Assembly (NCBI GenBank): GCA_964508365.1
Contig: CAZDTP010000051.1
Span: forward strand, 14,176-31,176
Length of the DNA stretch: 17,001 nucleotides
DNA from: an uncultured archaeon
GTDB taxonomy: Archaea; Asgardarchaeota; Lokiarchaeia; Sigyniarchaeales; SOKP01
Direction of reading: 5' to 3'
A model generated the notes under the pieces. It made no database searches. It saw only the letters and a program-made list of their open reading frames with translations, and had not been told where the DNA came from. The translations under genes and the position numbers were made by a program. Below, piece after piece: positions 2,005-14,483 of this stretch. How positions within the stretch are numbered: the first letter of the stretch is position 1; each line of letters opens with the position of its first letter.

Positions 2005-2031
2005 TTTTTTCTTTATAAGTAAACAATTCTA

Positions 2032-3324
2032 ATGAGAAGTAATCTCAAATTACAAATAGGAGTTGATATCGGAAAAATTTCAGATTTAGATCAGGTAAAG
2101 TCGATCAACGCTCGACAAATTAAACTCCTTCAAGAAAGTGGAATTAGCACGGCAGAAGCCCTTGCGATGTCTCCGCACAATATCATAGGGGAGATAGACG
2201 GTTTAGGGGACAAAACAGCGAAGAAATTAATTTGGAACGCTCGAAACGCACTTGGAATGACCGAGTTCGTAGCAGCGGAAGACATAGACGAGAACACCGA
2301 GTACATTACGACCGGTTCTTCTGAGTTAAACAGAATATTGGGCGGTGGATTCCAAACAGGAAAACTCACTGAGGTATATGGCCCGTTTAAAAGCGGAAAA
2401 ACAAATTTAGCTCATACAATTGCTGTGACCATTCAGCTTTCGAAGAAAAAAGGCGGTCTTGGGTCGGCAGTAGCCTATATAGATACCGAAAACACCTTTT
2501 CGAAAGAAAAGATTAAACGGATCGCAAAAAGGTTCGGACTCGACCCAAAGAAAGTCTTATCGCAGATTTTTCACGCCAGAATTTATTCTTCTGACCACCA
2601 GATGCAGATGATTCAAAAGGCAGAAACTTTATGTAAAACAAGGAATGTGCGACTTATTGTAGTGGACAGCTTAATGGCTTTGTTAAGGGCTGAATATGTT
2701 GGCATTGGAATGCTCGCCCGCCGTCAGGGAATTCTCAACAACATGATACATGGGCTTTCGCGGGTTGCAGAGACTTACAATTGCGCCATTCTTCTAACCA
2801 ATCAAGTTTCGACCAAGATGATGGGTATGTTTTCAGCGGACGACGCGATTGGCGGAAACATCGTGGCACATGGCTGTCACTTTCGTGTCATGTTTAAAAC
2901 TAAAGGGTTCTCGTCCAATAATTCGTTAAAGCGGAGAGCGATAATAGTAGACGCCCCTGATTTGCCACCAGAAGAAGCAGAGTTCTATATTACGAGCGTA
3001 GGCATTGCCGACACCGAAAAAGGAGAAATTCCCGAAGCAAAAGGGTTAGATTTCGAAGTAGAAGAGCTATACGAAAAAGAAGAAAATGAAGAGATTCAGG
3101 TAGACGAAATTACCGAAGATGCAACTAATTCAGAGGAATATTCTTTAGTAGATGTGAAGGGGATCGGGGATGGCACCGCAAAAAATCTTGTTAAAAACGG
3201 TATAATATCGATCCAAGACTTGCTAAATTCCGATCCTGAGACGCTCGCCACTAAGATTAGCGGAATCTCTTCTAAAATGATTAATGAATGGCAAGCGAAC
3301 GCGAAAGCTCTTTTAATCGCTTAA
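2032..3324 (+). CDS. radA: RadA/Rad51-family recombinase (probable paralog) with an acidic linker and an extra C-terminal HhH domain
   Basis: N-terminal HhH domain, FxxA motif (FVAA), ITTGS...LGGG, Walker A GPFKSGKT, YIDTENTF, Walker B LIVVDS, LARRQ, TNQV, GGNIVAH, DAPDLP. About 100 extra C-terminal residues. Confidence 0.93.
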   Translation: MRSNLKLQIGVDIGKISDLDQVKSINARQIKLLQESGISTAEALAMSPHNIIGEIDGLGDKTAKKLIWNARNALGMTEFVAAEDIDENTEYITTGSSELNRILGGGFQTGKLTEVYGPFKSGKTNLAHTIAVTIQLSKKKGGLGSAVAYIDTENTFSKEKIKRIAKRFGLDPKKVLSQIFHARIYSSDHQMQMIQKAETLCKTRNVRLIVVDSLMALLRAEYVGIGMLARRQGILNNMIHGLSRVAETYNCAILLTNQVSTKMMGMFSADDAIGGNIVAHGCHFRVMFKTKGFSSNNSLKRRAIIVDAPDLPPEEAEFYITSVGIADTEKGEIPEAKGLDFEVEELYEKEENEEIQVDEITEDATNSEEYSLVDVKGIGDGTAKNLVKNGIISIQDLLNSDPETLATKISGISSKMINEWQANAKALLIA

Positions 3325-3328
3325 ATCC

Positions 3329-3370
3329 TTATTTTTTTTCTTTTTTTTTTTATTTACTCTTTTTTGTTTT
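3329..3370 (+). terminator. Long oligo-T terminator after radA
   Basis: T8 and T11 runs directly after the stop at 3324. Confidence 0.65.
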
Positions 3371-3489
3371 AAGTTCAATCTTTTGCGAGGAAAAAATGAA
3401 ATATTGTCAGTCTATTACTGTTAAAATATAAAAGCCTATTCATTATTCAACTCTTTTATTATATTATCTGCAATACTTGCAAAAAAAGT

Positions 3490-3609
3490 TTAAATTTCCT
3501 TAATTCTTGTGAAAAAGTCTTTTGAAGGAGTTATATCTGCTTTTGTTAAGACTTCAGCACATTGAGATCCGGAGGGTCCCGCTCCTGATATTATCACATC
3601 ATGCATCAT
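3490..3609 (-). pseudogene. Remnant of an FAD-dependent oxidoreductase (geranylgeranyl-reductase-like N-terminus)
   Basis: Hand translation MMHDVIISGAGPSGSQCAEVLTKADITPSKDFFTRIKEI*. DVIISGAGPSG is the beta1-GxGxxG dinucleotide-binding start; the frame stops after 39 codons. Confidence 0.75.
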
Positions 3610-3814
3610 TAACACATTTCAAAATTATTTATGTTAAAAAATTTATTTGAGAAAGATTTATTATTTTCTTACCAATTTGATTGCTTCAGAAATTTCTACT
3701 AATGGCTTCGCAATTAATAAGAAATTAGGTTAGTATTCTATATATATGTTTCACACTAAGAGAGAACAGATCAATTAAGAAATTAATTGATTTGTATTTT
3801 TTATAAGGTTATTA

Positions 3815-3988
3815 CTACTCCTTTTTTTTCATGTTCTCCGACTTCCAGAGCTTCAAATAGATTTTGAAAAAATTGTGCGGAAGACCGATAGAGTTAATTA
3901 TTCTCGTATTTTTTGGCTCGTTTACCTTCTTAGCTTTCTTTTTATTAAAATTTTGTTCCCAATCGTAATATGATATCGGTTCTTCCAT
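3815..3988 (-). CDS. Small basic hypothetical protein, 57 aa (below the ORF-track cutoff)
   Basis: MEEPISYYDWEQNFNKKKAKKVNEPKNTRIINSIGLPHNFFKIYLKLWKSENMKKKE followed by TAG TAA TAA; purine-rich AAGAGGAAG upstream; more GC-rich than the flanking spacer. Confidence 0.55.
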   Translation of the reverse strand: MEEPISYYDWEQNFNKKKAKKVNEPKNTRIINSIGLPHNFFKIYLKLWKSENMKKKE

Positions 3989-4372
3989 ACAACACGAAAT
4001 TATATTCTTCCTCTTAAACTATGAGACCACTTTAGATTAGAAATTTTTCCCGAAGTAAATTGATCGATTTGGAGCAAAAATCGTCGAAATTCAGTCGCTT
4101 AATTTGAATATTTATTATTTTAATTTTGTAATTTATGCGATAATTGCCAATTAATTCCAATTATTATTGTACTTACAGTTATAATTATCAAATCTTAATT
4201 TATAAAATTATATAAATAAAACTAAATTTTAATGAAAATTAAAAAATATCCTTCAAATTTAATTTTTTTTTTCATTGAATTAGGTGCAACTAGATTTAAA
4301 TATGATAATTACTTAGTTAATATTTAGAATTGGAATAGATATGAACATAAACAAATTTTTAGGGTGATTTAA

Positions 4373-4933
4373 ATGGAATTTCTTCCTATGTTAGAGTTTG
4401 GTTGGTTGAATGGTTGGTTATTACTTGTTATATTTTTCGGCATTTTTGGTATAATAGTCTTGACAAGTCCTAAAGAGGTCATCGCAAGGCTTTATGAGGA
4501 AGAAGAATGGAAAAAAAGAGGAATTCTCCTTAAAATAGCTGGATGGTGTGGAGCATTATTTTTATTCCTTCTATTTATACTTACTCCGCTAAACATTGGA
4601 TCAATTGAATTTTTAATTGGGATAATATTATTCTCTATTGGTACAGTAGGGATGGCAGTGGCACTCGTAAATTTTAAAAATGCGCCTTTAAATAAGCCAA
4701 TAGCATCTGGGTTATATCGAATATCTCGAAATCCTCAGATGTTGACTATCTATGTCGCATTTTTAGGGATTTGTTTAGCGATTGGATCAGGGATTGTACT
4801 AATATTACTTAGTATTTCTATAGTTGGTGGCCATTTTCGCATTCTAAGTTAGGAGAGAAAGCTTTTAAGGCAATACGGCGAATCTTACGAATTGTACAAA
4901 AAGAAAATAGCGAGATATTTTTTATTCTTCTAA
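4373..4933 (+). pseudogene. ICMT/PEMT-family integral-membrane methyltransferase interrupted by an in-frame TAG at 4850-4852
   Basis: GGTGA RBS at about 4364-4368; several TM helices; GLYRISRNPQ motif; the frame continues past TAG as ERKLLRQYGESYELYKKKIARYFLFF* (TAA 4931-4933), matching the family tail EE..L...yGe.Y..Y....R. Confidence 0.85.
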
Positions 4934-4962
4934 TAAGAAAATTTCTTTCGGTCTCATATATT

Positions 4963-4978
4963 AAGAAAAAAAAAGAAT
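4963..4978 (-). terminator. Oligo-T terminator for the minus-strand 350-aa gene
   Basis: Plus-strand A run just beyond the stop at 4988. Confidence 0.45.
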
Positions 4979-4987
4979 AGAATGTAG

Positions 4988-6040
4988 TTAATTAGTTCGC
5001 AGGCTAACAGAATCTTTTTTTCGCCTAACCGCTCCAAAAACTACTAGAATAGATAGTATTCCTCCGGCAGAAAGACCAAAAGCAAGCGTCCATTCCATCG
5101 GTACGTAATAATATCCGCTCGTAGTTTCGTTAGTAATTGGATCGGTTCCGTTGTTAGGGTCAGGGTCGGGAATAGTTCCGTTATTAACAGTGCTAATTTG
5201 ATAATCTTCTGCTATAGCGTAGGCAATGTTTGCTACTTCGACCTGGCAATGAATCGTAATTTTTACCGAGTAAATTCCCTCAATAGATGTTCCAAAGTCA
5301 AAATGCATCATCGTTCCAACGTTTCCTATTGTTTCGTTTTGGTAGATCGTAAACTTAATTTCTTCAGGATCGGTTACTTCATATTCCACCTTTACTTCAT
5401 TTGCAACAGTTAGGCCACCAATAGCCGAGACTCTTGCGAGGTAAAACTTGTAAGACCAATCGATTTTAAGAACGGTGTTATGCTCAATCACCATCCCGCT
5501 GGTGAATTTATTAACCTGATATAGCTCCAATCGTTCTAGATATTTTAACGCTATCATATCGTATAAGCACTTATCTTGCGAGTCGAACGATATTTTTACA
5601 TGTAAGTTCAAATTAAGCGCACATTCAACGGAAAAGATAAAACTATAATTCCCCGCAATTGCTGTACCAAATGGAATTTCGAACCAATCGTCGTCTTGAG
5701 AAATGTTCACTTCCGTTTTGAACACTTCGTACACGTCCAGTACCGGATCGATGATGGTCACGTTGATTTCGCAATTGTGAGGAGTAACAATCTCAAGTAA
5801 CACATAATAATTGACCTTTTCGATCAGATATAAGTCGTCGAATTGTAAGGTGTCATTAGGAGCCAGAAAGGTAAATACTTTGTCGACTAAATTTACTTCG
5901 GAGCTTGTTTTTGGTATTTCTCCAGAACCAAGAACCTTAGGAATTCGAGAATTATCTCCTAATAACCCAACAATAAGTCCTCCTATCAATAAAAAACTGA
6001 TAATTACGACTTTTTTAGTATTATACTTGCTAATAGCCAT
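4988..6040 (-). CDS. Secreted or surface protein with two beta-sandwich-like repeats and a C-terminal TM anchor, 350 aa
   Basis: N-terminal hydrophobic segment; internal repeat IIDP...IPFGTAIAGNYSF / VTDP...FDFGTSIEGIYSV; DPDP linker; TM followed by RRKK. Confidence 0.8.
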   Translation of the reverse strand: MAISKYNTKKVVIISFLLIGGLIVGLLGDNSRIPKVLGSGEIPKTSSEVNLVDKVFTFLAPNDTLQFDDLYLIEKVNYYVLLEIVTPHNCEINVTIIDPVLDVYEVFKTEVNISQDDDWFEIPFGTAIAGNYSFIFSVECALNLNLHVKISFDSQDKCLYDMIALKYLERLELYQVNKFTSGMVIEHNTVLKIDWSYKFYLARVSAIGGLTVANEVKVEYEVTDPEEIKFTIYQNETIGNVGTMMHFDFGTSIEGIYSVKITIHCQVEVANIAYAIAEDYQISTVNNGTIPDPDPNNGTDPITNETTSGYYYVPMEWTLAFGLSAGGILSILVVFGAVRRKKDSVSLRTN

Positions 6041-6296
6041 ACACCTGCAATTCTTTGAATTCAGAGATTAGTAATTTCACCTTCGAACAAATGTCGTAGT
6101 CTATACAACTAAAGCATGGCTGGTCCGACCAAAAATACGCGGGTTGATTCATCCTCTCCACGATTAAAAGCGGAAAGCTACTTTTTGGGCATTCTAACGC
6201 AGAATTACTAATCTTTCCCTTCTTCGGGATCGGATACGAAACACCACAAGCATCGCATTTCACGAATCGCTTGTAGTTATTTGTCTTGTACATCAT
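6030..6296 (-). CDS. Small Cys-rich metal-binding protein, 88 aa
   Basis: Six Cys: CDAC, ECPK, CFSCIDYDIC. Overlaps the start of the downstream gene by 11 nt, consistent with translational coupling. Confidence 0.75.
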   Translation of the reverse strand: MMYKTNNYKRFVKCDACGVSYPIPKKGKISNSALECPKSSFPLLIVERMNQPAYFWSDQPCFSCIDYDICSKVKLLISEFKELQVYGY

Positions 6297-6516
6297 TAAT
6301 GAGCACTGGCAAGATGGGCAAGTGCCTATTTCCTCAATCTGTTTCAGTTAAAACACCGTAAATTTATTTTTACTTTATGGTAAAAATCGATACTTATAAA
6401 GGAAAAAGCATTTTTTAAAAAAAAATTAGTAATTACGGGAACTGATCTCACTTAAAAGGTACGGAATTATTTTCTAACCTTGCAATTCTCTGAAAACGCC
6501 CTAATTTATTTTTTTT

Positions 6517-6547
6517 GGAAGGTTAGGATTATAATTCCTATCCTTTC
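6517..6547. promoter_or_regulatory. Imperfect inverted repeat (12-bp arms, TTATAAT spacer); possible operator or RNA hairpin
   Basis: ggaaggttagga-ttataat-tcctatcctttc; arms match 10/12; followed by a T tract on the plus strand. Confidence 0.4.
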
Positions 6548-6716
6548 TTTTTAATTAAACAAATTCTAATACTAAAAATATCATGTATTAAACAATATCA
6601 CATTTATGGTATAGTAAAAAAAGGTTTTTTTACCCTTATAACAGTCCGCAACTATCATCATAAAATTAATAGATTAGTTTTTTTCTTTAAAAATACAAGA
6701 ATAATATTCCACTATT

Positions 6717-6941
6717 ATGGTATTATTCGATTATTTTGAAGATGTGCTTGGAGGATTCGAGTTTTGGATTGCCTTTGGCTCGCTCGTGGGAATCTTTGGA
6801 CTCTTAATCGGTATTATATTAGTAATATGGGGCGGAAGTCGGCTTCGCTACAAGATGCTAGGAGTTATAATCGCTTCATTTGTGTTGATTGCGATTTGCG
6901 GGTTCGATACCGGTTTCAAGTACTTCAGGATTTTTAGATAA
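6717..6941 (+). CDS. Small two-TM membrane protein, 74 aa
   Basis: Two hydrophobic helices joined by a basic loop (SRLRYK). Confidence 0.75.
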   Translation: MVLFDYFEDVLGGFEFWIAFGSLVGIFGLLIGIILVIWGGSRLRYKMLGVIIASFVLIAICGFDTGFKYFRIFR

Positions 6942-6956
6942 AAAAATATTTTTCTT

Positions 6957-7340
6957 TTAATAATAATGGTATCCTTGGGGTGGTTGACCCCCTCCAAACA
7001 CTAAACCTAAAAATTCGAAAGGAATTCCGGTAAGAAAAGCGCCGATCCATAGTAATAACGCACTAAGCAACATTGATTTAACATTGAATTGGTGGAAGAA
7101 GATTTTGAGGATGTTTATTACGAGCAATGCGCTCCCGATCGTGAGGAAAATTTGTCCTACGCTCACAAAAATGGTTTTGAAAACCGTACTTGTCATATAA
7201 CGCAAGTTGGATCCGAAAAAAGGCACGACTATTGCTACGAACCCTAATATTCCGAGAAATATTAAAAAAGTGTGGTTTGCCTTGCGTTGTTTTCGAAGGA
7301 TTATGATTCCGTCGCTATTTTTAGCCATAGATTTTATCAC
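6957..7340 (-). CDS. Hypothetical membrane protein with 3-4 TM helices, 127 aa (true start may be the ATG at 7328)
   Basis: Basic N-terminus, hydrophobic segments, GGGQPPQGYHYY tail. Confidence 0.75.
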   Translation of the reverse strand: MIKSMAKNSDGIIILRKQRKANHTFLIFLGILGFVAIVVPFFGSNLRYMTSTVFKTIFVSVGQIFLTIGSALLVINILKIFFHQFNVKSMLLSALLLWIGAFLTGIPFEFLGLVFGGGQPPQGYHYY

Positions 7341-7449
7341 TTGATAAGATAAATTTGGTTTTTATCTCATATTCAAATCAAATCTTTATAAAGAAAAAGT
7401 CTGGAACACTCGATTTTTCCTTTTTATATGCTTCTTTGCTCTAGAATGT

Positions 7450-8550
7450 ATGGGAGTTAAGCTTCAAGATTTAGTGATCCGAAACACTATAGATTTTTCC
7501 AAACTCGCAGGAAAGATTATAGCAGTAGATGCTCCGAATGTAATAATGAGTTTGTTTAACTTCGCCCGTAAAAACCATGATGGCTCCCATGCGGGACTCA
7601 TTCTAGACCGCACCCAAAGACCGATATCTCACCTTTATGGCTTGCTTTTCAGGACGAACTTTTTCTATTCTAAGAAAATTTTCCCAATTTTTTGCTTTGA
7701 CGGGCTCGACTCTGACCTTAAAAAGCTAAAAACTAAAGATAGGCTCAACGACTTCTTATTTACAGAAAAATTATACCGATCGTTAATCCAATCGGGGAAA
7801 AGAGAGAATGCGAAACAAATTGCTTTATCCCGAGAGTATATGTGGCCCAATATTATTAAAGAATCTAAGCAATTACTAGGGGCATTAGGATTACCATACA
7901 TAAACGCTCCCGCTTCGGCAGAGTCGCAATGCGCTCAGCTTGTTAAAAATAGAGTAGTTCATTACTCTAACTCGCAAGATTTCGACTCACTTTTGTTTGG
8001 TTGCCCGCGGGTAATCCAAAACCTCTCGAAGTCGTTAAGAAGGAAGGTGCAGGGTCGCTGGTCGTATCAAAAAATCACTCCGGTCAAGATCGATCTTAAA
8101 GAAAACCTAAAAAGGTTAGGAATCGATCAGTTTCAATTGGTAGATATGGCGCTCCTGATTGGAACCGATTACTTTCCAGGTATAAAAAATATTGGACCAA
8201 AACACGCCTACAAATTCATAAAAAAGCACCGATCCATAGAAAATGTGATTAAAGAAGAAAAAGAAAATTACGATTTTTCTGAATTGAGTTCCGAAAACAT
8301 TGCAAATGTAAGAAAAATTTTTTTACTCCCCGAAGTCTTAGAGGATTACCCAAATTTGAGCTGGAATTACCCTAGCGAACACCAAACGCAAAACTTATTA
8401 TGCGAAGTTCACCATCTCAATCGAGAACGGGTGGAAACCAACCTGAAAAAGTTAGCCTCTAATTACGAAAAGTGCCAGACATTTTTCTCCAACAAAACGA
8501 GAAATCCCTCTAAAAAACAAGAAACCTTCGACTCTATTTTTTATACCTAA
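7450..8550 (+). CDS. fen: Flap endonuclease 1 family nuclease (divergent)
   Basis: MGV start, AVDA, SHLYGL, FDG..LK......R, SQDFDSLLFG, GTDYFPGIKNIGPKHA (H3TH motif), degenerate C-terminal PIP box QETFDSIF. Confidence 0.92.
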   Translation: MGVKLQDLVIRNTIDFSKLAGKIIAVDAPNVIMSLFNFARKNHDGSHAGLILDRTQRPISHLYGLLFRTNFFYSKKIFPIFCFDGLDSDLKKLKTKDRLNDFLFTEKLYRSLIQSGKRENAKQIALSREYMWPNIIKESKQLLGALGLPYINAPASAESQCAQLVKNRVVHYSNSQDFDSLLFGCPRVIQNLSKSLRRKVQGRWSYQKITPVKIDLKENLKRLGIDQFQLVDMALLIGTDYFPGIKNIGPKHAYKFIKKHRSIENVIKEEKENYDFSELSSENIANVRKIFLLPEVLEDYPNLSWNYPSEHQTQNLLCEVHHLNRERVETNLKKLASNYEKCQTFFSNKTRNPSKKQETFDSIFYT

Positions 8551-8553
8551 AAA

Positions 8554-8567
8554 TTTTATTTTTCTTT
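8554..8567 (+). terminator. T-rich terminator-like tract after fen
   Basis: ttttatttttcttt after the stop at 8550. Confidence 0.4.
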
Positions 8568-8640
8568 ATAAAGTCTCAATGAATCGTTTATATGGTAATT
8601 AATATTCAATACCCACAAAACTAACGAAATTGAGAGAAGT

Positions 8641-9249
8641 ATGGCAAGATCAACGAACAATGCGATTTTTCTGCAAAACAGTTTACGAGCCTATAGAAGA
8701 GCTCCAAAGGAAGATTTAAACAAGGAGAAAGTGCTAAACTACTTTTTTAGGTTAGAAAGTTTTACGAATGATCGAAACGAATACAAAAATTTAACGCCTT
8801 TGCTCGTTGGGAACATTGCGAAGGAAACAAACCTACCTAATTCCGTAGTGTTAAACACTGCTTTGGAGTTTTTAACCGAAGCTACTCAATTCAGTCATAC
8901 TTTAAGTTTAGGGCTCATATCGTGGGGCACAGGAGAGAAAAGCGTGTTGCGGCAAGCGAAATTTTACCTGAGAAAGGTTTATAAGATCGCCCCGGTGTTC
9001 GATTACTCCCGAGCGATTGCTAACTTAGAAATTTTACATACTCTTTTAAAGAAAGTCTTTTATTGGCCTCGCATCACCACTCAGCTTGCCTTGACTATTT
9101 TTGTGACCGACCGAAACGACCCAAATATAACGAAAAATGAGTATATTTTGCAAAAAAATTTAAGAACTTTTTGCGCATGCTCCGCTTACGCCTTCCACAT
9201 GGCTCGAAAGAAGCTTAATATTGACAAGACAGGAAGCGTTAGTATCTAA
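8641..9249 (+). CDS. Hypothetical protein, possibly with a TFB/cyclin-like helical fold, 202 aa
   Basis: IAKETNLPNSVVLNTALEFL and QLALTIFVT...ILQKNLRTFCACSAYAFHMARKKL resemble helices of the TFB cyclin repeat. The resemblance is by eye only. Confidence 0.7.
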   Translation: MARSTNNAIFLQNSLRAYRRAPKEDLNKEKVLNYFFRLESFTNDRNEYKNLTPLLVGNIAKETNLPNSVVLNTALEFLTEATQFSHTLSLGLISWGTGEKSVLRQAKFYLRKVYKIAPVFDYSRAIANLEILHTLLKKVFYWPRITTQLALTIFVTDRNDPNITKNEYILQKNLRTFCACSAYAFHMARKKLNIDKTGSVSI

Positions 9250-9253
9250 CCTG

Positions 9254-9300
9254 TTTTTCTATTTATTTTATTATTATTTATACTTGAAGTTTATTTCTTT
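9254..9300 (+). terminator. T-rich terminator-like tract
   Basis: Several T runs after the stop at 9249. Confidence 0.4.
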
Positions 9301-9370
9301 CTTAGATTTTTTCTTTAAATAATCAACTTCTTATTTTTACATAATAGTAAATTAATAAGCAGTTTTTATC

Positions 9371-10297
9371 GTGAGCAACTCAGTAGACGAATTATACCAA
9401 AAGTTATTGGACCTTGGTATGTCAGAAGAAGAGCTAGAAAAAAAAGTCAAGAATAAAGTAGAAGAATACGGCGGTTTCATGTCGGAACAGGGAGTGTTGT
9501 TTGTAATAGCCAGAGAAAACGGGCTTAATTTGAGATCCCCCGATATTGACGATTATCTTTACGACGAGTTAGAAGAAGAAGTCGATTACGACGAGTTCAC
9601 AATAGATATTTCGGACGTTAGAGAAGGGATGAGCAACATCGTGCTGTTAGGTAAGATTTTGAGCACGCAAAAAATTAGAGAATTTATACGGAAAGACGAA
9701 TCTATTGGAAAAGTGAGTTCTTTCTTACTTGGTGACCTAACCGGAACCGTTAAAGTTGTGCTATGGGACGAGCGAGCCGATAGCGTTAATCACGAATCTT
9801 TTAAACCAAACGAGCTTGTACGAGTTATCGGCGGGTATTCAAAACTTGGACAAAACGAAGCTATAGAAGTTCACCTTGGAAGAAAAGGCACATTAATTTT
9901 CGCTCCTGAAATTAGCGATAAGAAGAAAGAGCGGTTAGACACTATTACAAATAATAGTTCAGAAAGAAAAACGCCCAATAGTATTTCTTTAAAGCCTTTA
10001 GGACAAGCCATCCAACAAAACAAGTTCATTAGCATCGTTAAAGGAACCGTTCGAATCGAAGATTTTAGAGAATTAGAGTTAAAATCAGGCGATAGATCGT
10101 TTTTACTCACGCTGTTATTAGAAGTCGAAGACTTTTCCATCAGGGTGAAAGTGTGGGGCATGAAAGCGGTAGAATGCTTGAAAATAGTGAATGATGGGGA
10201 TTATATTTCTATTACCAACCTAGTTGTTAAAGAGAACAAATACACCGCAGAGAAGGAACTTGTTTTCACGAAAAATTCGAGTTTACTATTAATATAA
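9371..10297 (+). CDS. rpa: RPA-like ssDNA-binding protein: DUF2240-like N-terminus, acidic linker, two OB folds
   Basis: GTG start; ELEKKVKNKVEEYGGFMSEQGVLFVIARENG; ISDVREGMSNIVLLGKI...LGDLTGTVKVVLWD; second OB fold SIRVKVWG...GDYISITNL. Confidence 0.85.
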   Translation: MSNSVDELYQKLLDLGMSEEELEKKVKNKVEEYGGFMSEQGVLFVIARENGLNLRSPDIDDYLYDELEEEVDYDEFTIDISDVREGMSNIVLLGKILSTQKIREFIRKDESIGKVSSFLLGDLTGTVKVVLWDERADSVNHESFKPNELVRVIGGYSKLGQNEAIEVHLGRKGTLIFAPEISDKKKERLDTITNNSSERKTPNSISLKPLGQAIQQNKFISIVKGTVRIEDFRELELKSGDRSFLLTLLLEVEDFSIRVKVWGMKAVECLKIVNDGDYISITNLVVKENKYTAEKELVFTKNSSLLLI

Positions 10298-10478
10298 TTA
10301 ATTAAGTCTACTCTCGTTGGTTGGTCAAATATTCCCAATACATGATATACTGGGATTAAGAAGGCGGATTGAGTTAAATGTAGACGTCTAAATCTTATTT
10401 AGAGTTAAATTTTTATAGAATCTTTGCGTATATATTGATTTAATGAAATCTAAATTTAAAATTAGAGATTGATAACAT

Positions 10479-13403
10479 ATGAAAAATAAATGTAAGATAT
10501 ATTTACTCCTATTTCTTGTATTAATACCTTATTTTATTCTAATTGGTGATATAAACCTTTTATCCGAAGAGAATGAAAAAAATATTTTAAAGCAAAAGAA
10601 TATCGTAGGGGGGCTAAAAACTTCAAAATCATGGAATTTATCACCTTTTATCATCAGCGTTACTGGAGGGGGCAATGGTACTTGGGCTTGGGCAAGTAGC
10701 AACGATTGGTGTAATGGCTCTGGAACAATCAATGATCCTTATATCATTGAAAATGTAACTATCGATGCGAGTGGAATATTAGGTACAAGCTGTATTACAA
10801 TCAATAATTCTGAAGTCTATTTTGTAATTCAAAATTGCTCGTTAAGAAACTCAGGTAATGATGCTATGGATGCAGGGATTAAATTACTAAATACTAGCAA
10901 TGGAAGAATTCAAAACAACAATATTTCGAGAAATCTAGGAAATGGAATTTATTTAAATGGTTCACATCAGAATACAATCAAAAAAAATATTATTGAACAT
11001 AATAAAATTGGTTGTAATCTCTACGATTATTGCGAGTATAATACCATAACCCAAAACAATATCAGCAATAATCAAGAGCACGGTATTTACTTTCACTTTT
11101 ATAATGATTATAATAACATAAGTTCAAATACAGTGCAGTTTAATGGAAAATTTGGTCCCTTTCATGGAATTTTTCTTGATGGCTGGTATTGCCAATTTAA
11201 TTTAATAGATAAAAATGTAATAAAAAACAATACAGGTGACGGAATTCGATTAGACACTTATAGTCATAATAGTACCATCGCTGAAAATATTATCGTGAAT
11301 AATTCTTGGGCGGGAATAACATTAACTTCTTCTTCTGAATGTGAAATCTCTGAAAATCAAATAATTAATAATTTTCAATATGGCATCTTGATTTCAGAAT
11401 GTGATCGTGTAAATATAATAGTGAATATAATCAAGTTCAATGGCGATTTAGTTGATTCTTATGGTATTTACTCTACTGGTAGTGACTACCTCAATATTTC
11501 TGGAAACGAGTTTCTGAACAATTACAATGGTATTGGGCTGAGATTTTGCGATAGTTGTAATGTTTCGAATAATTTTCTAAAAGATAATGCTCTGTATGGA
11601 ATATTCGTTGAGCATCTATCTGATTTTAATTACATCTATGACAATTTATTGCAAGATAATGTAAGAGCAATTACGATTTATGACAATAGCAACAATAATG
11701 AGATTTATAATAATAAAATCATAAAAAGTAGTAGTTCAAGTATAGAAATAAATAACAAATGTAATCTAAACTTAGTTTATAATAACTCTCTTATTCGAAA
11801 TGGTTATGGTATCGATATTAATAACGATTGCGACCTTAATAATTTAACAAGTAATGTTATCAAGGAAAGCACTTTCAGCGGTGTACGAATTGTTAGTGGC
11901 TGTAACGAAAATCTTTTATACGGGAATTATTTTGTTCTTAATATTCTAAATGCTATCAATGATGAATCCGATACTCGATGGAATACAACAGAAACCGGTA
12001 ATTATTGGTCTAACTATACTGGTTATGATTTAGATGGTGATGGTTTTGGAGATATACCTCATCCCATTATTAGCTATGGAAATGACTCCCTTCCTATTTA
12101 CAGTAATATTCCAAATATCTACATTGATGAATTTACTGATTATGATTGGAAATGGGCAAAGCAACAATATTGGTGTAATGGCTCAGGAACAGAAGAGGAT
12201 CCCTATATAATAGAAAATAAACTCATCAAAAAAGAATGGTTGAGCAATTGTATTGAAATTAGAAACTCTGAGGTTCACTTTACTATCATTAATTGTACTT
12301 TAACGGCAAAAACATCATATTTCTCTAGTATTGTTCTATATAATGTTAAGAACGGTAAGATTAGTCATAATAAAATAACACAGAATAATATAGGGATTCA
12401 ATTAGACAAGTGTGATCAAATTGATATTTCAAATAACACCATCAAGGATAATAATATTGGCGTTAATTTAATTTGTAGCGATTTCAACTATGTTACCAAT
12501 AATACAGTCCAATATAACAATTTTGGTTTGTATATATGGCAAAGTAATAACAATTTGTTCAATGATAATCTTCTACTTAATAATAATCAATGTATCCTTG
12601 AACTTGACTGCGAGAATAATGTTTTTGAAAATAATATTTGTGACCCTAAACCTTTAGAAGAATTATGCGTTGAAATAGTTGACCAAATATTCTCTTCTTC
12701 AGCCTATAATTTCACTTTTTATGTATATAATGATACTAATTATGCCATGGAATTCGCAACTATTCAGATATGGTGGAATGGAACTGATGTGTCATCTGAT
12801 ATCATTAATCTTGGTTCTGGTTTCTATTTTATATCTTTAGAACCTATTACCATAAATCTAGGTGAAAGCTCAATCCTTTTGAATTTAACTATTTCTGCTT
12901 CAGGATATTCAGATAAATACTTTGAAACTTATCTTGCAATACATCCATGCGAATTAATTGATTTGATGTTTCTTGAAATTATAGAACAGATTTTTACTGA
13001 AGAACATTTTAATATCACATTTTCAATAAGAAATGGGACAGGTCAGGGGATTGATTCTGCAGTCCTTGTTATATCATGGAATGGAACTGATGTGTCATCT
13101 GATATCATAAATCTAAGTGGTGGTTTCTATAAGATAACCCTAACACCAATAATAGTAAATCCAGGAGATGATCCCATTATTTTGGGTATTAATGTTTCAG
13201 CTGCGAATTATAGTGATATGTCTTATCAACTAGAATTATCAGTAGATCCAGATACAATCAGTAAAGAAACAATTACTCCCTCACCCGGAGAATTTCTGAT
13301 TTTTCTTATCGTAATAATCGGAGTTTCGAGTGGAGGTGTTTTGGTTGCTCTAGTGATTATTATTTTAAGAAAGAGAGGATCTAAAGAATTCGTACAATCT
13401 TAA
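10479..13403 (+). CDS. Large surface protein: signal peptide, two NosD/CASH-type parallel beta-helix modules, two C-terminal beta-sandwich repeats, TM anchor
   Basis: Many Asn-rich repeats (I..N.I..N..GI.L); WCNGSGT..DPYIIEN leader occurs twice; GNYWSNY...DLDGDGFGD NosD-type ending; two 101-aa WNGTDVSSDIINL repeats; TM plus LRKR. Confidence 0.9.
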   Translation: MKNKCKIYLLLFLVLIPYFILIGDINLLSEENEKNILKQKNIVGGLKTSKSWNLSPFIISVTGGGNGTWAWASSNDWCNGSGTINDPYIIENVTIDASGILGTSCITINNSEVYFVIQNCSLRNSGNDAMDAGIKLLNTSNGRIQNNNISRNLGNGIYLNGSHQNTIKKNIIEHNKIGCNLYDYCEYNTITQNNISNNQEHGIYFHFYNDYNNISSNTVQFNGKFGPFHGIFLDGWYCQFNLIDKNVIKNNTGDGIRLDTYSHNSTIAENIIVNNSWAGITLTSSSECEISENQIINNFQYGILISECDRVNIIVNIIKFNGDLVDSYGIYSTGSDYLNISGNEFLNNYNGIGLRFCDSCNVSNNFLKDNALYGIFVEHLSDFNYIYDNLLQDNVRAITIYDNSNNNEIYNNKIIKSSSSSIEINNKCNLNLVYNNSLIRNGYGIDINNDCDLNNLTSNVIKESTFSGVRIVSGCNENLLYGNYFVLNILNAINDESDTRWNTTETGNYWSNYTGYDLDGDGFGDIPHPIISYGNDSLPIYSNIPNIYIDEFTDYDWKWAKQQYWCNGSGTEEDPYIIENKLIKKEWLSNCIEIRNSEVHFTIINCTLTAKTSYFSSIVLYNVKNGKISHNKITQNNIGIQLDKCDQIDISNNTIKDNNIGVNLICSDFNYVTNNTVQYNNFGLYIWQSNNNLFNDNLLLNNNQCILELDCENNVFENNICDPKPLEELCVEIVDQIFSSSAYNFTFYVYNDTNYAMEFATIQIWWNGTDVSSDIINLGSGFYFISLEPITINLGESSILLNLTISASGYSDKYFETYLAIHPCELIDLMFLEIIEQIFTEEHFNITFSIRNGTGQGIDSAVLVISWNGTDVSSDIINLSGGFYKITLTPIIVNPGDDPIILGINVSAANYSDMSYQLELSVDPDTISKETITPSPGEFLIFLIVIIGVSSGGVLVALVIIILRKRGSKEFVQS
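12774..13108 (+). repeat. Perfect 32-bp direct repeat (12774-12805 and 13077-13108) within the beta-helix gene
   Basis: tggaatggaactgatgtgtcatctgatatcat twice, 303 bp apart and in frame. Confidence 0.95.
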
Positions 13404-13409
13404 ATTCAT

Positions 13410-13425
13410 CTTTTTTTTTCTATTT
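13410..13425 (+). terminator. Oligo-T terminator after the beta-helix gene
   Basis: T9 at 13411-13419. Confidence 0.55.
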
Positions 13426-13452
13426 GTTCATGGTTTCTTGTGTTTAAATAGG

Positions 13453-13686
13453 TTTAAGGAATTAGAGTTGAAGTCGGGCGATAAATCGTTTTTGCTCACC
13501 ATGTTCATAGATGTGGAAAGCTTTACGATAAAAATGAAAGCGTGGGGTATGAAAGCAGTAGAATGCTTGAAAATCGTAAATAGTGGAGATTTTGTTTCAA
13601 TAACTAACTTAGCTGTTAAAGAGAACAGATACACATCAGAGAAAGAGCTTATATTCACGAAAAATTCGAGTGTATCGTTGGTCTAA
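13453..13686 (+). pseudogene. Orphan 3' fragment of an rpa gene (C-terminal OB fold); ORF-track call 13438-13686
   Basis: Homologous to rpa codons 232-308; only a TTG start with no RBS, and located directly after a terminator; reading frame intact. Confidence 0.8.
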
Positions 13687-13817: not shown

Positions 13818-14483
13818 GTGATAACTAAACAAAAATTCAATTTGTACCAGGTCCTTAGGCTAGAAAAGCTTAACAATCTCTTTTTAAAGCGGCTGGGGAG
13901 AATTCTCTTTTACAGTAGTGTTTGCTACATTATTTTGTTAGTCTCGAATGTTTTATTGTCTTCTTTTTTCGGTTTTTCACTCTTTGTAAATTTCATTAGC
14001 GATTTAGGTAGTATCAGATTTATTCCTTTTCCTTATGTTCATAATTTAATCTGCTTATTTGGAGGTATGGTAAGCCTTCCAATTAATTTTTATGTAAGGA
14101 ATAAGTTACGTATCGTATACAAAACTTCGAAGTATTCTATAAAGTTTGTTGATTTCGGCGTGGCTTTTGGAATAATTGGAAACATTGGATACATACTTTT
14201 GGGAGTGTTTAGTTTAGATAGGGCTGGTCCAGGAGACATCTATCATAGTATCATTGCTTCTATTTCGTTTGTCGGTTATATTTTATCTATTTTCTTTTTT
14301 AGTTTGAACATCGTCCTATCACACAACTGCAAGTTGAAACATTTGGGCTTTTTTGGGCTAGTTGTTCCCATCGCTTTGCTTTTCACCTATTGCATCCTTA
14401 CCATCCCTCTTATCGAATGGTTTTTGTTAAGTTCTATTTTGTTGTTTTTGCTTTTATTGAACTATTATGTGTTCAAATTTTAG
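13818..14483 (+). CDS. DUF998-like multi-pass membrane protein
   Basis: GTG start; FISDLG motif, G..GN.GY..LGVFSLD, YHSIIASISF; 5-6 TM helices. Confidence 0.75.
   Translation: MITKQKFNLYQVLRLEKLNNLFLKRLGRILFYSSVCYIILLVSNVLLSSFFGFSLFVNFISDLGSIRFIPFPYVHNLICLFGGMVSLPINFYVRNKLRIVYKTSKYSIKFVDFGVAFGIIGNIGYILLGVFSLDRAGPGDIYHSIIASISFVGYILSIFFFSLNIVLSHNCKLKHLGFFGLVVPIALLFTYCILTIPLIEWFLLSSILLFLLLLNYYVFKF

Follow-up and report, generated by a model that had tools for sequence, protein, structure and literature searches.

Introduction

Asgard archaea are the closest archaeal relatives of eukaryotes. Archaeal genomes carry paralogs of the recombinase RadA, namely RadB and aRadC, which act as mediators, and eukaryotes have Rad51 paralogs; RadB-type paralogs lack the N-terminal domain. 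Here, we analyzed a 17,001-nucleotide stretch of DNA from an uncultured archaeon of the Lokiarchaeia (hereafter, the window), located on contig CAZDTP010000051.1 (C51). Positions 2032-10297 of the window encode a divergent RadA (radA_v), a divergent FEN1 (fen_v), and a short RPA (rpa_v), together with a Zn-ribbon protein (cys88), a two-domain surface protein (surf350), two small membrane proteins (tm74 and tm127), and a 202-aa cyclin-box protein (unk202). The genome, referred to as G000, is a 4.07-Mb assembly of 149 contigs with 100% completeness.

The described system closest to this locus as a whole is the TFB3-dependent DNA-damage response of Sulfolobales, with its Ups pili and Ced DNA importer (Feng et al. 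2018, PMC6101594). TFB3 is a truncated TFB that consists of a Zn ribbon and a coiled coil and acts with TFB1 (PMC6101594). Individual components also have published counterparts. A divergent second FEN1 copy of Asgard archaea, Fen1-2, has already been reported (PMC12680538), in a text in which neither “RadA” nor “synten” occurs and which thus links Fen1-2 to no RadA and no synteny. A second RadA clade in Asgard archaea has been published as well (Matsuo et al. 2025, PMC12722695), and the accessible part of that report gives no gene neighbourhood for it. A literature search recovered no description of the island presented below.

We consider it fairly probable that this island, of which the interval is a part, is a dispensable, vertically inherited recombination/repair regulon under the control of a TFB paralog. 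We treat it as one co-regulated unit because its genes share a promoter element, an unusual codon composition, their co-occurrence across genomes, and purifying selection.

Results

A conserved gene order within a larger island

The original prediction, made from the window’s letters without database searches, had named most of these genes, and both the listing of open reading frames (ORFs) and our family scans place them where it did. Its two small membrane proteins are indeed present: tm74 (6717..6941, plus strand) has two hydrophobic segments and tm127 (6957..7340, minus strand) has three to four. A further gene of the interval, surf350 (4988-6040, minus strand), was absent from its list. 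The order radA_v, a variable spacer, surf350-cys88, tm74, tm127, fen_v, unk202, and rpa_v is kept in at least ten loci of congeners (L009-L024), at protein identities of 33-93%. The proposed check of linkage in related genomes therefore returned an order that is maintained across the genus and is looser in the sister family; linkage has not been lost. Within the sister family, which includes two closed genomes, radA_v-type genes adjoin Hel308-like, FEN-like, Hef-like, and cys88-like genes, so that part of the linkage predates the family.

The sequence of C51 upstream of the window, together with four long contigs of relatives, revealed that the interval is the right third of an island of ~45-55 kb. 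The predicted module is thus a conserved linked unit but not a self-contained one. The island opens with a ThiF-like gene, followed by genes for 296-, 1270-, 284-, and 249-aa proteins without a known family, a 634-aa protein with helix-hairpin-helix (HhH) motifs, and a Hel308-like helicase. A DUF1922 Zn ribbon and a Hef-like helicase come next, and then a 990-aa membrane protein with a prenyltransferase-type toroid, a TFB-like gene, an M50-like protease, a 116-aa ORF (o116), and a RadB/KaiC-like gene. A 126-aa Zn protein, the genes radA_v through rpa_v, and orf221 complete the series. The succession of the ThiF, Hel308-like, Hef-like, TFB, M50, RadB, and radA_v to rpa_v genes is present on the four long contigs; in G000, the island is spread over contigs C83 and C51 and the start of C12, with ~8 kb unassembled. 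Large island proteins of 1270, 990, 634, 411, and 390 aa belong to no family in Pfam or NCBIfam. Sequence searches of the PDB with the 634-aa and 1270-aa proteins returned an HhH match only, or nothing, and an NCBIfam scan of ten further island proteins gave no useful match.

A shared promoter element and codon composition

The word TTTT[TC]CTTT[AT][AT]A stands 14-110 nt upstream of radA_v, cys88, tm74, tm127, fen_v, unk202, and rpa_v. This T run followed by C and TTTAWA matches the window 8 times, against 0.39 expected, and all matches lie between 2006 and 9319; 0 of 200 shuffles reached 8. With this excess, and with the same gene order in at least ten related loci, the gene cluster is not a product of chance. 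The copy at 2006..2017 (plus strand, TTTTTCTTTATA) ends 14 nt before the radA_v ATG, and the same motif occupies the orthologous site in relatives. Further copies are found at 6395..6406 (minus strand) for the cys88-surf350 operon, at 6680..6691 (plus) for tm74, at 8559..8570 (plus) for unk202, and at 9308..9319 (plus) for rpa_v, while a divergent pair at 7387..7426 comprises TTTTTCTTTATA on the minus strand for tm127 and TTTTCCTTTTTA on the plus strand for fen_v.

The motif is kept at orthologous positions in relatives (52 distinct instances). Copies are also found upstream of the M50 operon and of the 126-aa gene, and neither operon-internal genes nor the TFB-like gene are preceded by one. 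A stricter word, TTTYCTTTAWAA, occurs 87 times in the 4.07 Mb of the genome, 5 of them inside these 8.3 kb. Genome-wide, TTTTTC precedes 10 of 1302 TATA-like boxes, compared with ~0.8 expected from composition. A genome-wide search for a canonical consensus of the B recognition element (BRE), meant for comparison, gave a flat profile from the AT-rich upstream regions.

The “CG-rich codon style” that the original prediction had counted by hand proved to be a property of all eight interval genes. Their GC content at third codon positions (GC3) is 0.37-0.52 (0.425 for radA_v), compared with a genome mean of 0.257 (sd 0.039, 99th percentile 0.381); canonical paralogs have 0.20-0.26, and cassettes inserted into the island have 0.22-0.28. 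Within the island, high GC3 coincides exactly with the motif-bearing genes on C83, C51, and C12 and does not extend to the cassettes between them, and 18 of the 52 ORFs of at least 150 aa with a GC3 of at least 0.36 lie on these three island contigs. Codon-use selection, biased gene conversion, and past transfer are candidate causes. Recent horizontal transfer is an unlikely one, given that the divergence of radA_v parallels that of housekeeping RadA.

Distribution, descent, and selection

Within the class, homologs of unk202 are confined to this family, where they occur in 76 of the 134 genomes. The radA_v clade is present in 80 of these 134 genomes; of the other families of the order, three hold it, in 8 of their 18 genomes. 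Among ~240 other sampled Asgard genomes, we found none at E <= 1e-80. On co-occurrence, which the original prediction had proposed to examine, the two markers go together: both unk202 and radA_v occur in 61 of the 134 family genomes, one only in 34, and neither in 39, as raw counts that ignore kinship and gaps in metagenome-assembled genomes. Three congeners with 98-99% completeness (G018, G135, and G144) lack radA_v, fen_v, rpa_v, and unk202 altogether.

The identity of radA_v between G000 and eight relatives (93, 92.5, 87, 86, 76, 75, 77, and 71%) ranks these relatives in the same order as both housekeeping RadA genes do, the congruence that the original prediction had proposed to examine. 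Because radA_v identities follow housekeeping RadA, the island appears to have been inherited and often lost, not recently transferred. All eight interval genes are under purifying selection, with ratios of nonsynonymous to synonymous substitution (dN/dS) of 0.03-0.22 at synonymous sites that are near saturation; radA_v, at 0.03-0.04, lies at the lower end.

The patchy distribution, in ~55-60% of the family genomes, is also what a plasmid, virus, or selfish element, whether resident or a remnant, with its own recombination and replication-restart genes would produce, and a composition unlike that of the host fits such an origin. Some genomes hold more than one copy: a single contig of G077 carries two unk202 genes separated by 28 kb, and three radA_v loci are present in G008. 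The surroundings of the island vary too, as genes of the C12 type lie to its right in G008 (contig C20) and to its left in G016 (contig C1), and to the right of the second G008 copy the neighbouring genes are different ones. Nevertheless, we judge a mobile element to be very unlikely. The scanned ORFs included no gene for an integrase, a replication initiator, a capsid, or conjugation, PHROGs returned generic RecA-fold matches only, and the window contains no tRNA gene. The divergence of radA_v, moreover, follows that of housekeeping RadA, and part of the multi-copy signal in G008 may come from mixed genomes, since this assembly has 9% contamination.

Divergent RadA, FEN1, and RPA beside housekeeping copies

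Each of the three recombination genes departs from the housekeeping consensus, as the original prediction had asserted: radA_v in its Walker A motif and L1 loop, fen_v in a serine at the position of E158 and in its PCNA-interacting protein (PIP) box, and rpa_v in having two oligonucleotide-binding (OB) folds and no Zn finger. None of them is the only copy, as canonical genes for RadA (C9 and C114), FEN1 (C10), and RPA (C25) are encoded elsewhere in the genome.

The radA_v gene (2032-3324, plus strand) encodes 430 aa, in which an ATPase core follows an N-terminal HhH domain and an acidic linker leads to another HhH domain at the C-terminus; this linker and the second HhH are confined to this genus. 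Its start is uncertain, as the alignments of relatives begin only at residue 15. The protein scores 235 bits against Rad51 (PF08423, cut-off 22) and 326 against NCBIfam PRK04301 (cut-off 259), has two HhH_5 stretches, and remains below the stricter TIGR02236 equivalog (289 versus a cut-off of 361). It is 41-43% identical to the two canonical RadA proteins of G000, encoded on C9 (332 aa) and on C114, the latter 427 aa long and extended N-terminally by a Zn/acidic region. Both canonical genes are near-universal in the genus and radA_v is accessory; in total, the genome has three RadA-type genes and, in addition, two RadB-like proteins.

All radA_v orthologs, including those of other families, have the Walker A sequence G[PSA]FKSGKTN (GPFKSGKTN in the window), as opposed to the canonical GEFRTGKTQ. 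Every one of them, again with other families included, has GIG in the L1 loop in place of the GRG of the canonical G000 copies, and the orthologs share a 5-residue insertion after the L2 region. The FxxA polymerisation motif (FVAA, in the linker), Walker B (LIVVDS), the DTE glutamate (IDTE), and the L2 region are retained. Judged by these motifs, radA_v looks competent for polymerisation and ATP hydrolysis, with an altered DNA-binding loop. It aligned to the RadA of P. furiosus over residues 19-327, with HHH_5 at the N-terminus, at 222 bits, and to Rad51 structures at 203-208 bits; the corresponding scores of a canonical copy are 346 and 271.

Like RadB, aRadC, and the Rad51 paralogs, radA_v is a RecA-fold paralog beside other recombination genes, and the island even contains a RadB/KaiC-like ATPase. 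Unlike RadB-type paralogs, it keeps the full RadA architecture (N-terminal HhH, FxxA, Walker A and B, and L2). As in PMC12722695, there is more than one RadA per Asgard genome and the copies fall into distinct clades; G000 differs from what is described there in having three RadA-type genes, two near-universal and one, radA_v, accessory. The radA_v clade is probably not the Heimdall/Gerd clade of that report, since at E <= 1e-80 it is confined to this order and absent from the ~240 other Asgard genomes.

In the radA_v genes of three relatives, we observed a 31-nt insert with a TAA codon that splits the gene exactly between AIGGN and IVAHG. It is present in at least four loci: L013:9172-9202 (G008:C12), L014:9208-9238 (G008:C49), L015:9147-9177 (G015:C255), and L016:7501-7531 (G017:C32). 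The radA_v gene of the window has no insert at the equivalent site, ~2859/2860. Its fold is a bulge-helix-bulge of the tRNA type, in which a helix of 4 bp lies between two 3-nt bulges and each junction follows the second base of a bulge. Pairing extends to 90.6% of cells, compared with 30-53% in slid controls, and three pairs are compensatory. This structure suggests that the insert is probably a mini-intron cut out by the tRNA-splicing endonuclease. Matches that end at residue 276/277 suggest the same insert in G131, G139, G140, G084, G064, G076, G060, and G057.

The fen_v gene (7450-8550, plus strand) encodes a divergent FEN1 with XPG_N (PF00752, 25.7 bits) and XPG_I (PF00867, 83.5 bits) domains, and scores 287 against the archaeal FEN1 equivalog (fen_arch), under its cut-off of 352. 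It is 34% identical to the canonical FEN1 of G000 (C10, 351 aa), the only other FEN1 homolog in the genome. Of the seven active-site carboxylates, six are retained; the equivalent of human E158 is a serine (PASAESQ versus PSEGEAQ), which is invariant among the orthologs of the genus. In a more remote homolog, the site still reads PSEAEAQ. The PIP box, Qxx[LIM]xx[FY][FY], is degenerate, reading QETFDSIF in fen_v and QNTLQKVI, QKTLDQLS, and QKTVDQLY in orthologs, compared with QVSLDSFF in canonical FEN1. The protein aligned at full length to archaeal FEN1 structures, with 195 bits to archaeal and 135 bits to human FEN1, compared with 317 and 200 for the canonical copy. By such alignment scores, the island copies of RadA and FEN1 are both more distant from all solved structures than the canonical copies are.

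Like Fen1-2, fen_v is the divergent, long-branch copy of two (PMC12680538). By elimination, it corresponds to the Fen1-2-type second copy, because there are exactly two FEN1 homologs and fen_v is the divergent one. In distinction to that description, fen_v is an accessory island gene with a private promoter and, within the genus, the replacement of E158 by serine, and alignments to PDB structures reveal no deletion relative to archaeal FEN1.

The third gene, rpa_v (9371-10297, plus strand), encodes a 308-aa protein that is, by homology, an RPA-like single-stranded DNA (ssDNA)-binding protein. It has an N-terminal helical domain in common with canonical RPA and two OB regions, at ~78-175 and 215-305. 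The OB fold model PF01336 matched at 30.3 bits (cut-off 27), and replication factor A models gave 60-97 bits, all under their cut-offs. No Cys4 motif is present in rpa_v, in contrast to the canonical RPA (C25, 574 aa), which has the Zn finger CSECRRKIDNCTC.

A RecA-like ATPase, a nuclease, and an ssDNA binder might also make up a system of defence against mobile elements. An accessory distribution, the company of nuclease, ATPase, and membrane components, and a cassette with PIN and ABC genes nearby on the contig all agree with this, yet we find the proposal barely plausible. The enzymes are full-length homologs of repair proteins, in which the polymerisation motif and the HhH domains are kept. 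The PIN and ABC genes are inserted cassettes, because they are of ordinary composition and absent at this site in relatives, and the match in PADLOC was weak and of a generic P-loop kind (mad8, 31 bits). Membership in a virus or in a known defence system was rejected on the ground that PHROGs and PADLOC yielded generic RecA-fold or P-loop matches only.

A cyclin-box protein and a divergent TFB

The original prediction had listed a TFB/cyclin-like gene, which is unk202 (8641..9249, plus strand). This 202-aa protein belongs to no sequence family, and none of its 193 homologs is named. Its structural model, at a predicted local distance difference test (pLDDT) score of 78.5, has a C-terminal five-helix cyclin box at residues 96-202. 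In VIA-align, these residues superimposed on the first repeat of TFIIB with Z 7.7 and a root-mean-square deviation of 2.7 over 95 residues, a Z score that falls within the range of common helical arrangements; the top five structural rows are all TFIIB or Brf (Z 7.7-6.9), with cyclins after them. As for sequence, hhalign against the TFBs of the same genome gave a probability of 0.5%, Foldseek against the PDB gave nothing at E <= 0.001, and a search for a Zn ribbon found no pairs of cysteines in the N-terminal half, C178 and C180 being the only conserved ones. We therefore rejected unk202 as a TFB by sequence. On its predicted structure, it is a cyclin-box protein, not a demonstrable TFB, since there is no Zn ribbon and neither hhalign nor Foldseek gave a significant match. 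The cyclin half of the original description agrees with the single predicted box; the TFB half is not supported, and a genuine divergent TFB lies outside the window.

This second gene (C51:1625-2902, minus strand; L025:1625-2902), ~13 kb upstream, encodes the 425-aa TFB-like protein of the island. Aligned to five TFBs of its own genome by hhalign, it scored 97% (E 1.1e-10) over 264 columns that span the ribbon, both cyclin repeats, and the C-terminal helix-turn-helix (HTH); in Pfam, it has a weak ribbon match of 21.9 bits. By these profile alignments, it is a real, very divergent TFB. The region of its recognition helix reads MSTIHRQVE, compared with the canonical VTEVTLRxRY. It adjoins the module in 7 of the 7 loci with enough upstream sequence, and itself has neither the island promoter motif nor high GC3.

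The TFB3 system invites comparison (PMC6101594). In both cases, a TFB in addition to the housekeeping TFB is tied to genes related to DNA damage or recombination and to membrane genes that are possibly switched together. Unlike TFB3, the island TFB has the ribbon together with both cyclin repeats and is extended by ~130 C-terminal residues. A further difference from the TFB3 system is that the candidate targets of the island TFB lie together in a single dispensable island, with an altered element in common at the BRE position, and no Ups or Ced homologs were recognised among the ~60 island ORFs scanned.

The ~130-aa C-terminal extension ends with a conserved ...YNPKGPPxxC in 5 of 7 orthologs. 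The gene is flanked by that of the 990-aa toroid membrane protein (L025:2-1261, minus strand) and by that of the M50 protease, of the site-2-protease family (L025:3644-4411, plus strand). One idea that this arrangement allows is that the island TFB might be tethered to a membrane and freed by proteolysis.

A smaller paralogous cluster was observed on C48 (20256-25940; L028), with a 295-aa protein related to the island TFB (33% identity), a paralog of the M50-like gene, a paralog of tm127, and a 203-aa gene, an ortholog of which lies between fen_v and unk202 in G008 (contig C12). A gene with high GC3 at C54:20721-21929 has an N-terminus that resembles that of the island TFB by eye.

Membrane and surface proteins

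The surf350 protein is predicted to be a membrane-anchored surface protein, with an N-terminal transmembrane (TM) segment, two beta-sandwich domains, a stalk rich in Pro, Thr, and Asn, and a C-terminal TM segment. Its gene, which is kept in 10 loci, is downstream of cys88, with an 11-nt overlap, in one operon. The structural neighbours of its model (pLDDT 65) are PNGase F (Z 10.2), followed by GOLD, PPC, and CBM6 folds at Z 9-10. The structure search gave generic jelly-roll, GOLD, PPC, and CBM folds only (Z 8-10), and a search of a protein atlas gave only unnamed clusters with scores below 0.85.

The Cys-rich Zn-ribbon protein cys88 (6030..6347, minus strand; ORF listed as 6030-6296) has 6 cysteines among its 88 aa; the 105-aa form of relatives has 9. 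In these relatives, an ATG or TTG start 17 codons upstream adds a CPxC; the codon at this place in the window is CTG, directly after a TAA. The CPxC remains in frame (6297-6347, minus strand), so that translation starts either at the CTG or at an internal ATG, without the first pair of Zn ligands.

Neither tm74 (dN/dS 0.08-0.11) nor tm127, which has a paralog on C48, matched a family in Pfam or NCBIfam, and a reading of both sequences by eye revealed no pilin-type N-terminus.

Genes for four or five conserved membrane or surface proteins lie tightly among the recombination genes and have the same promoter. This brings up the possibility of DNA exchange or import, in which the membrane and surface proteins would move DNA between cells and the variant RPA, RadA, and FEN1 would integrate it, on the model of Ups and Ced under TFB3 control in Sulfolobales. 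The linkage of a TFB paralog to the set, as in the TFB3 circuit (PMC6101594), and the position of the island as a hotspot of cassette gain with diverged gene tails (see below) agree with such a role, and, more speculatively, the raised GC3 could reflect frequent recombination. Several observations argue against it. Among ~60 island ORFs scanned with Pfam and NCBIfam, ~8 kb of the island being unassembled and several of the large proteins without a family, we recognised no pilin of the type IV or any other family, no VirB4/HerA-type or CedB-like ATPase, no CedA, no ComEC-like channel, and no other known DNA translocator. The two small proteins have no pilin-type N-terminus, the folds of surf350 are generic sugar- or protein-binding beta-sandwiches, and within the genus, the phylogeny of the island genes is vertical, not exchanged. 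Of the original claim that this is a paralogous set for DNA uptake, exchange, or a damage response, a paralogous, co-regulated set is borne out, and no uptake or transfer machinery was identified in the window or in the island. Because many membrane and surface proteins are co-regulated with it, DNA uptake or exchange has to be weighed, and we regard it as unlikely.

Cassette gain and a duplicated rpa_v tail

The island is a hotspot of cassette gain, and three cassettes of ordinary composition sit inside its G000 copy. The first (C51:5658-13200, L025) is a 7.8-kb insertion between the RadB-like gene and the 126-aa Zn gene, and carries genes for an ABC ATPase and a PIN protein, along with a radical-SAM/SPASM operon that contains small membrane proteins and a methyltransferase-TPR protein; it is partly present in G002 and absent from G008. 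The second, orf191 and orf171, precedes radA_v, and the third, a 974-aa beta-helix gene, lies within the rpa_v tail. The spacer after radA_v (3325..4987) also differs among relatives and is an inserted cassette, not part of the island core. This AT-rich spacer contains a PEMT-like membrane gene (4373-4852, plus strand) of ordinary composition (GC3 0.256) and a stub of 41 codons (3490-3615, minus strand) with a GxGxxG-type dinucleotide-binding motif (GAGPSG), which resembles the orphaned N-terminus of a gene for an FAD/NAD-dependent oxidoreductase.

Orphan gene tails flank inserted cassettes of ordinary genome composition. In the original prediction, such diverged tails were a candidate product of the system. 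In the case of rpa_v, codons 232-308 are present a second time as an orphan tail (13453..13686, plus strand; GC3 0.43). It is 78.6% identical in nucleotides to the tail at 10064-10297, and the two copies bracket a 3.1-kb cargo (10298..13452) that contains the 974-aa beta-helix/NosD-like gene (10479-13403, plus strand; GC3 0.235). This cargo is absent at the site in relatives and does not belong to the island core. Single-crossover integration of a circle would yield such a tail-cargo-tail pattern. One of the two tails probably came with the cargo from another species-level lineage, because each copy is ~80% identical to the tails of relatives; this equal identity does not single out the native one. 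Beyond them lies orf221 (13818..14483, plus strand), a membrane protein with at least five TM segments, which in relatives directly follows rpa_v. Its GC3 of 0.378 is of the island type, and it is probably the last island gene within the window.

Discussion

Our analysis depicts the island as a second, divergent toolkit for homologous recombination and repair, with membrane and surface proteins interleaved. Inside the window, this toolkit comprises radA_v, fen_v, and the two-OB RPA; outside, the RadB-like ATPase, the Hel308-like and Hef-like helicases, and the HhH protein. Nearly every transcription unit would be read from the same atypical promoter, in which a T run and a C occupy the usual place of the BRE, directly before TTTAWA. 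As a factor with an altered HTH adjoins genes with an altered BRE-position element, we infer that expression of the island TFB would activate all of these units jointly. The result would be a recombination/repair programme under separate control, running beside the housekeeping enzymes. The island enzymes would act jointly on DNA, and the trigger could be DNA damage, a stage of the life cycle, or contact between cells.

Several considerations weigh against this interpretation. That the island TFB recognizes the T-run/C element is something that we only infer, and the motif could be read by any of the other TFBs of the genome, of which at least eight are canonical and some, on C48 and probably on C54, are divergent as well. 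The promoter word alone is not specific, since its loosened form matches 266 times genome-wide, with many of these matches within genes. High GC3, seen in most relatives, is absent from the island genes of the deeper relatives G013 and G003. Furthermore, fen_v or radA_v could be a non-catalytic or regulatory paralog, because one has lost a metal ligand and the other the L1 arginine. Finally, the toolkit may have its role outside recombination, since the majority of island proteins belong to no known family.

A bolder version of DNA exchange is a switchable, sex-like programme, in which the TFB would turn on surface and membrane proteins together with a private set of RadA, RadB, RPA, FEN1, Hel308, and Hef. 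If this were true, the surface and membrane proteins would bring cells or DNA together, the private set would recombine the incoming DNA, and the raised GC3 and the turnover of cassettes would be footprints of recombination. We hold this to be distinctly unlikely, and favour the dispensable, TFB-controlled recombination/repair regulon.

For Asgard biology, this regulon would mean that the second copies of RadA and FEN1, with RPA and helicases, are in Loki-type lineages not scattered housekeeping duplicates but parts of one co-regulated, dispensable island with its own TFB. The island also offers a case in which it can be tested whether a TFB paralog reads an altered BRE-position element. The two closed genomes of the sister family, with their looser linkage, provide experimental handles. 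Finally, it calls for caution in phylogeny, as trees that use the Asgard Fen1-2 or extra RadA as proxies for the eukaryotic ancestor may sample fast-evolving accessory genes.

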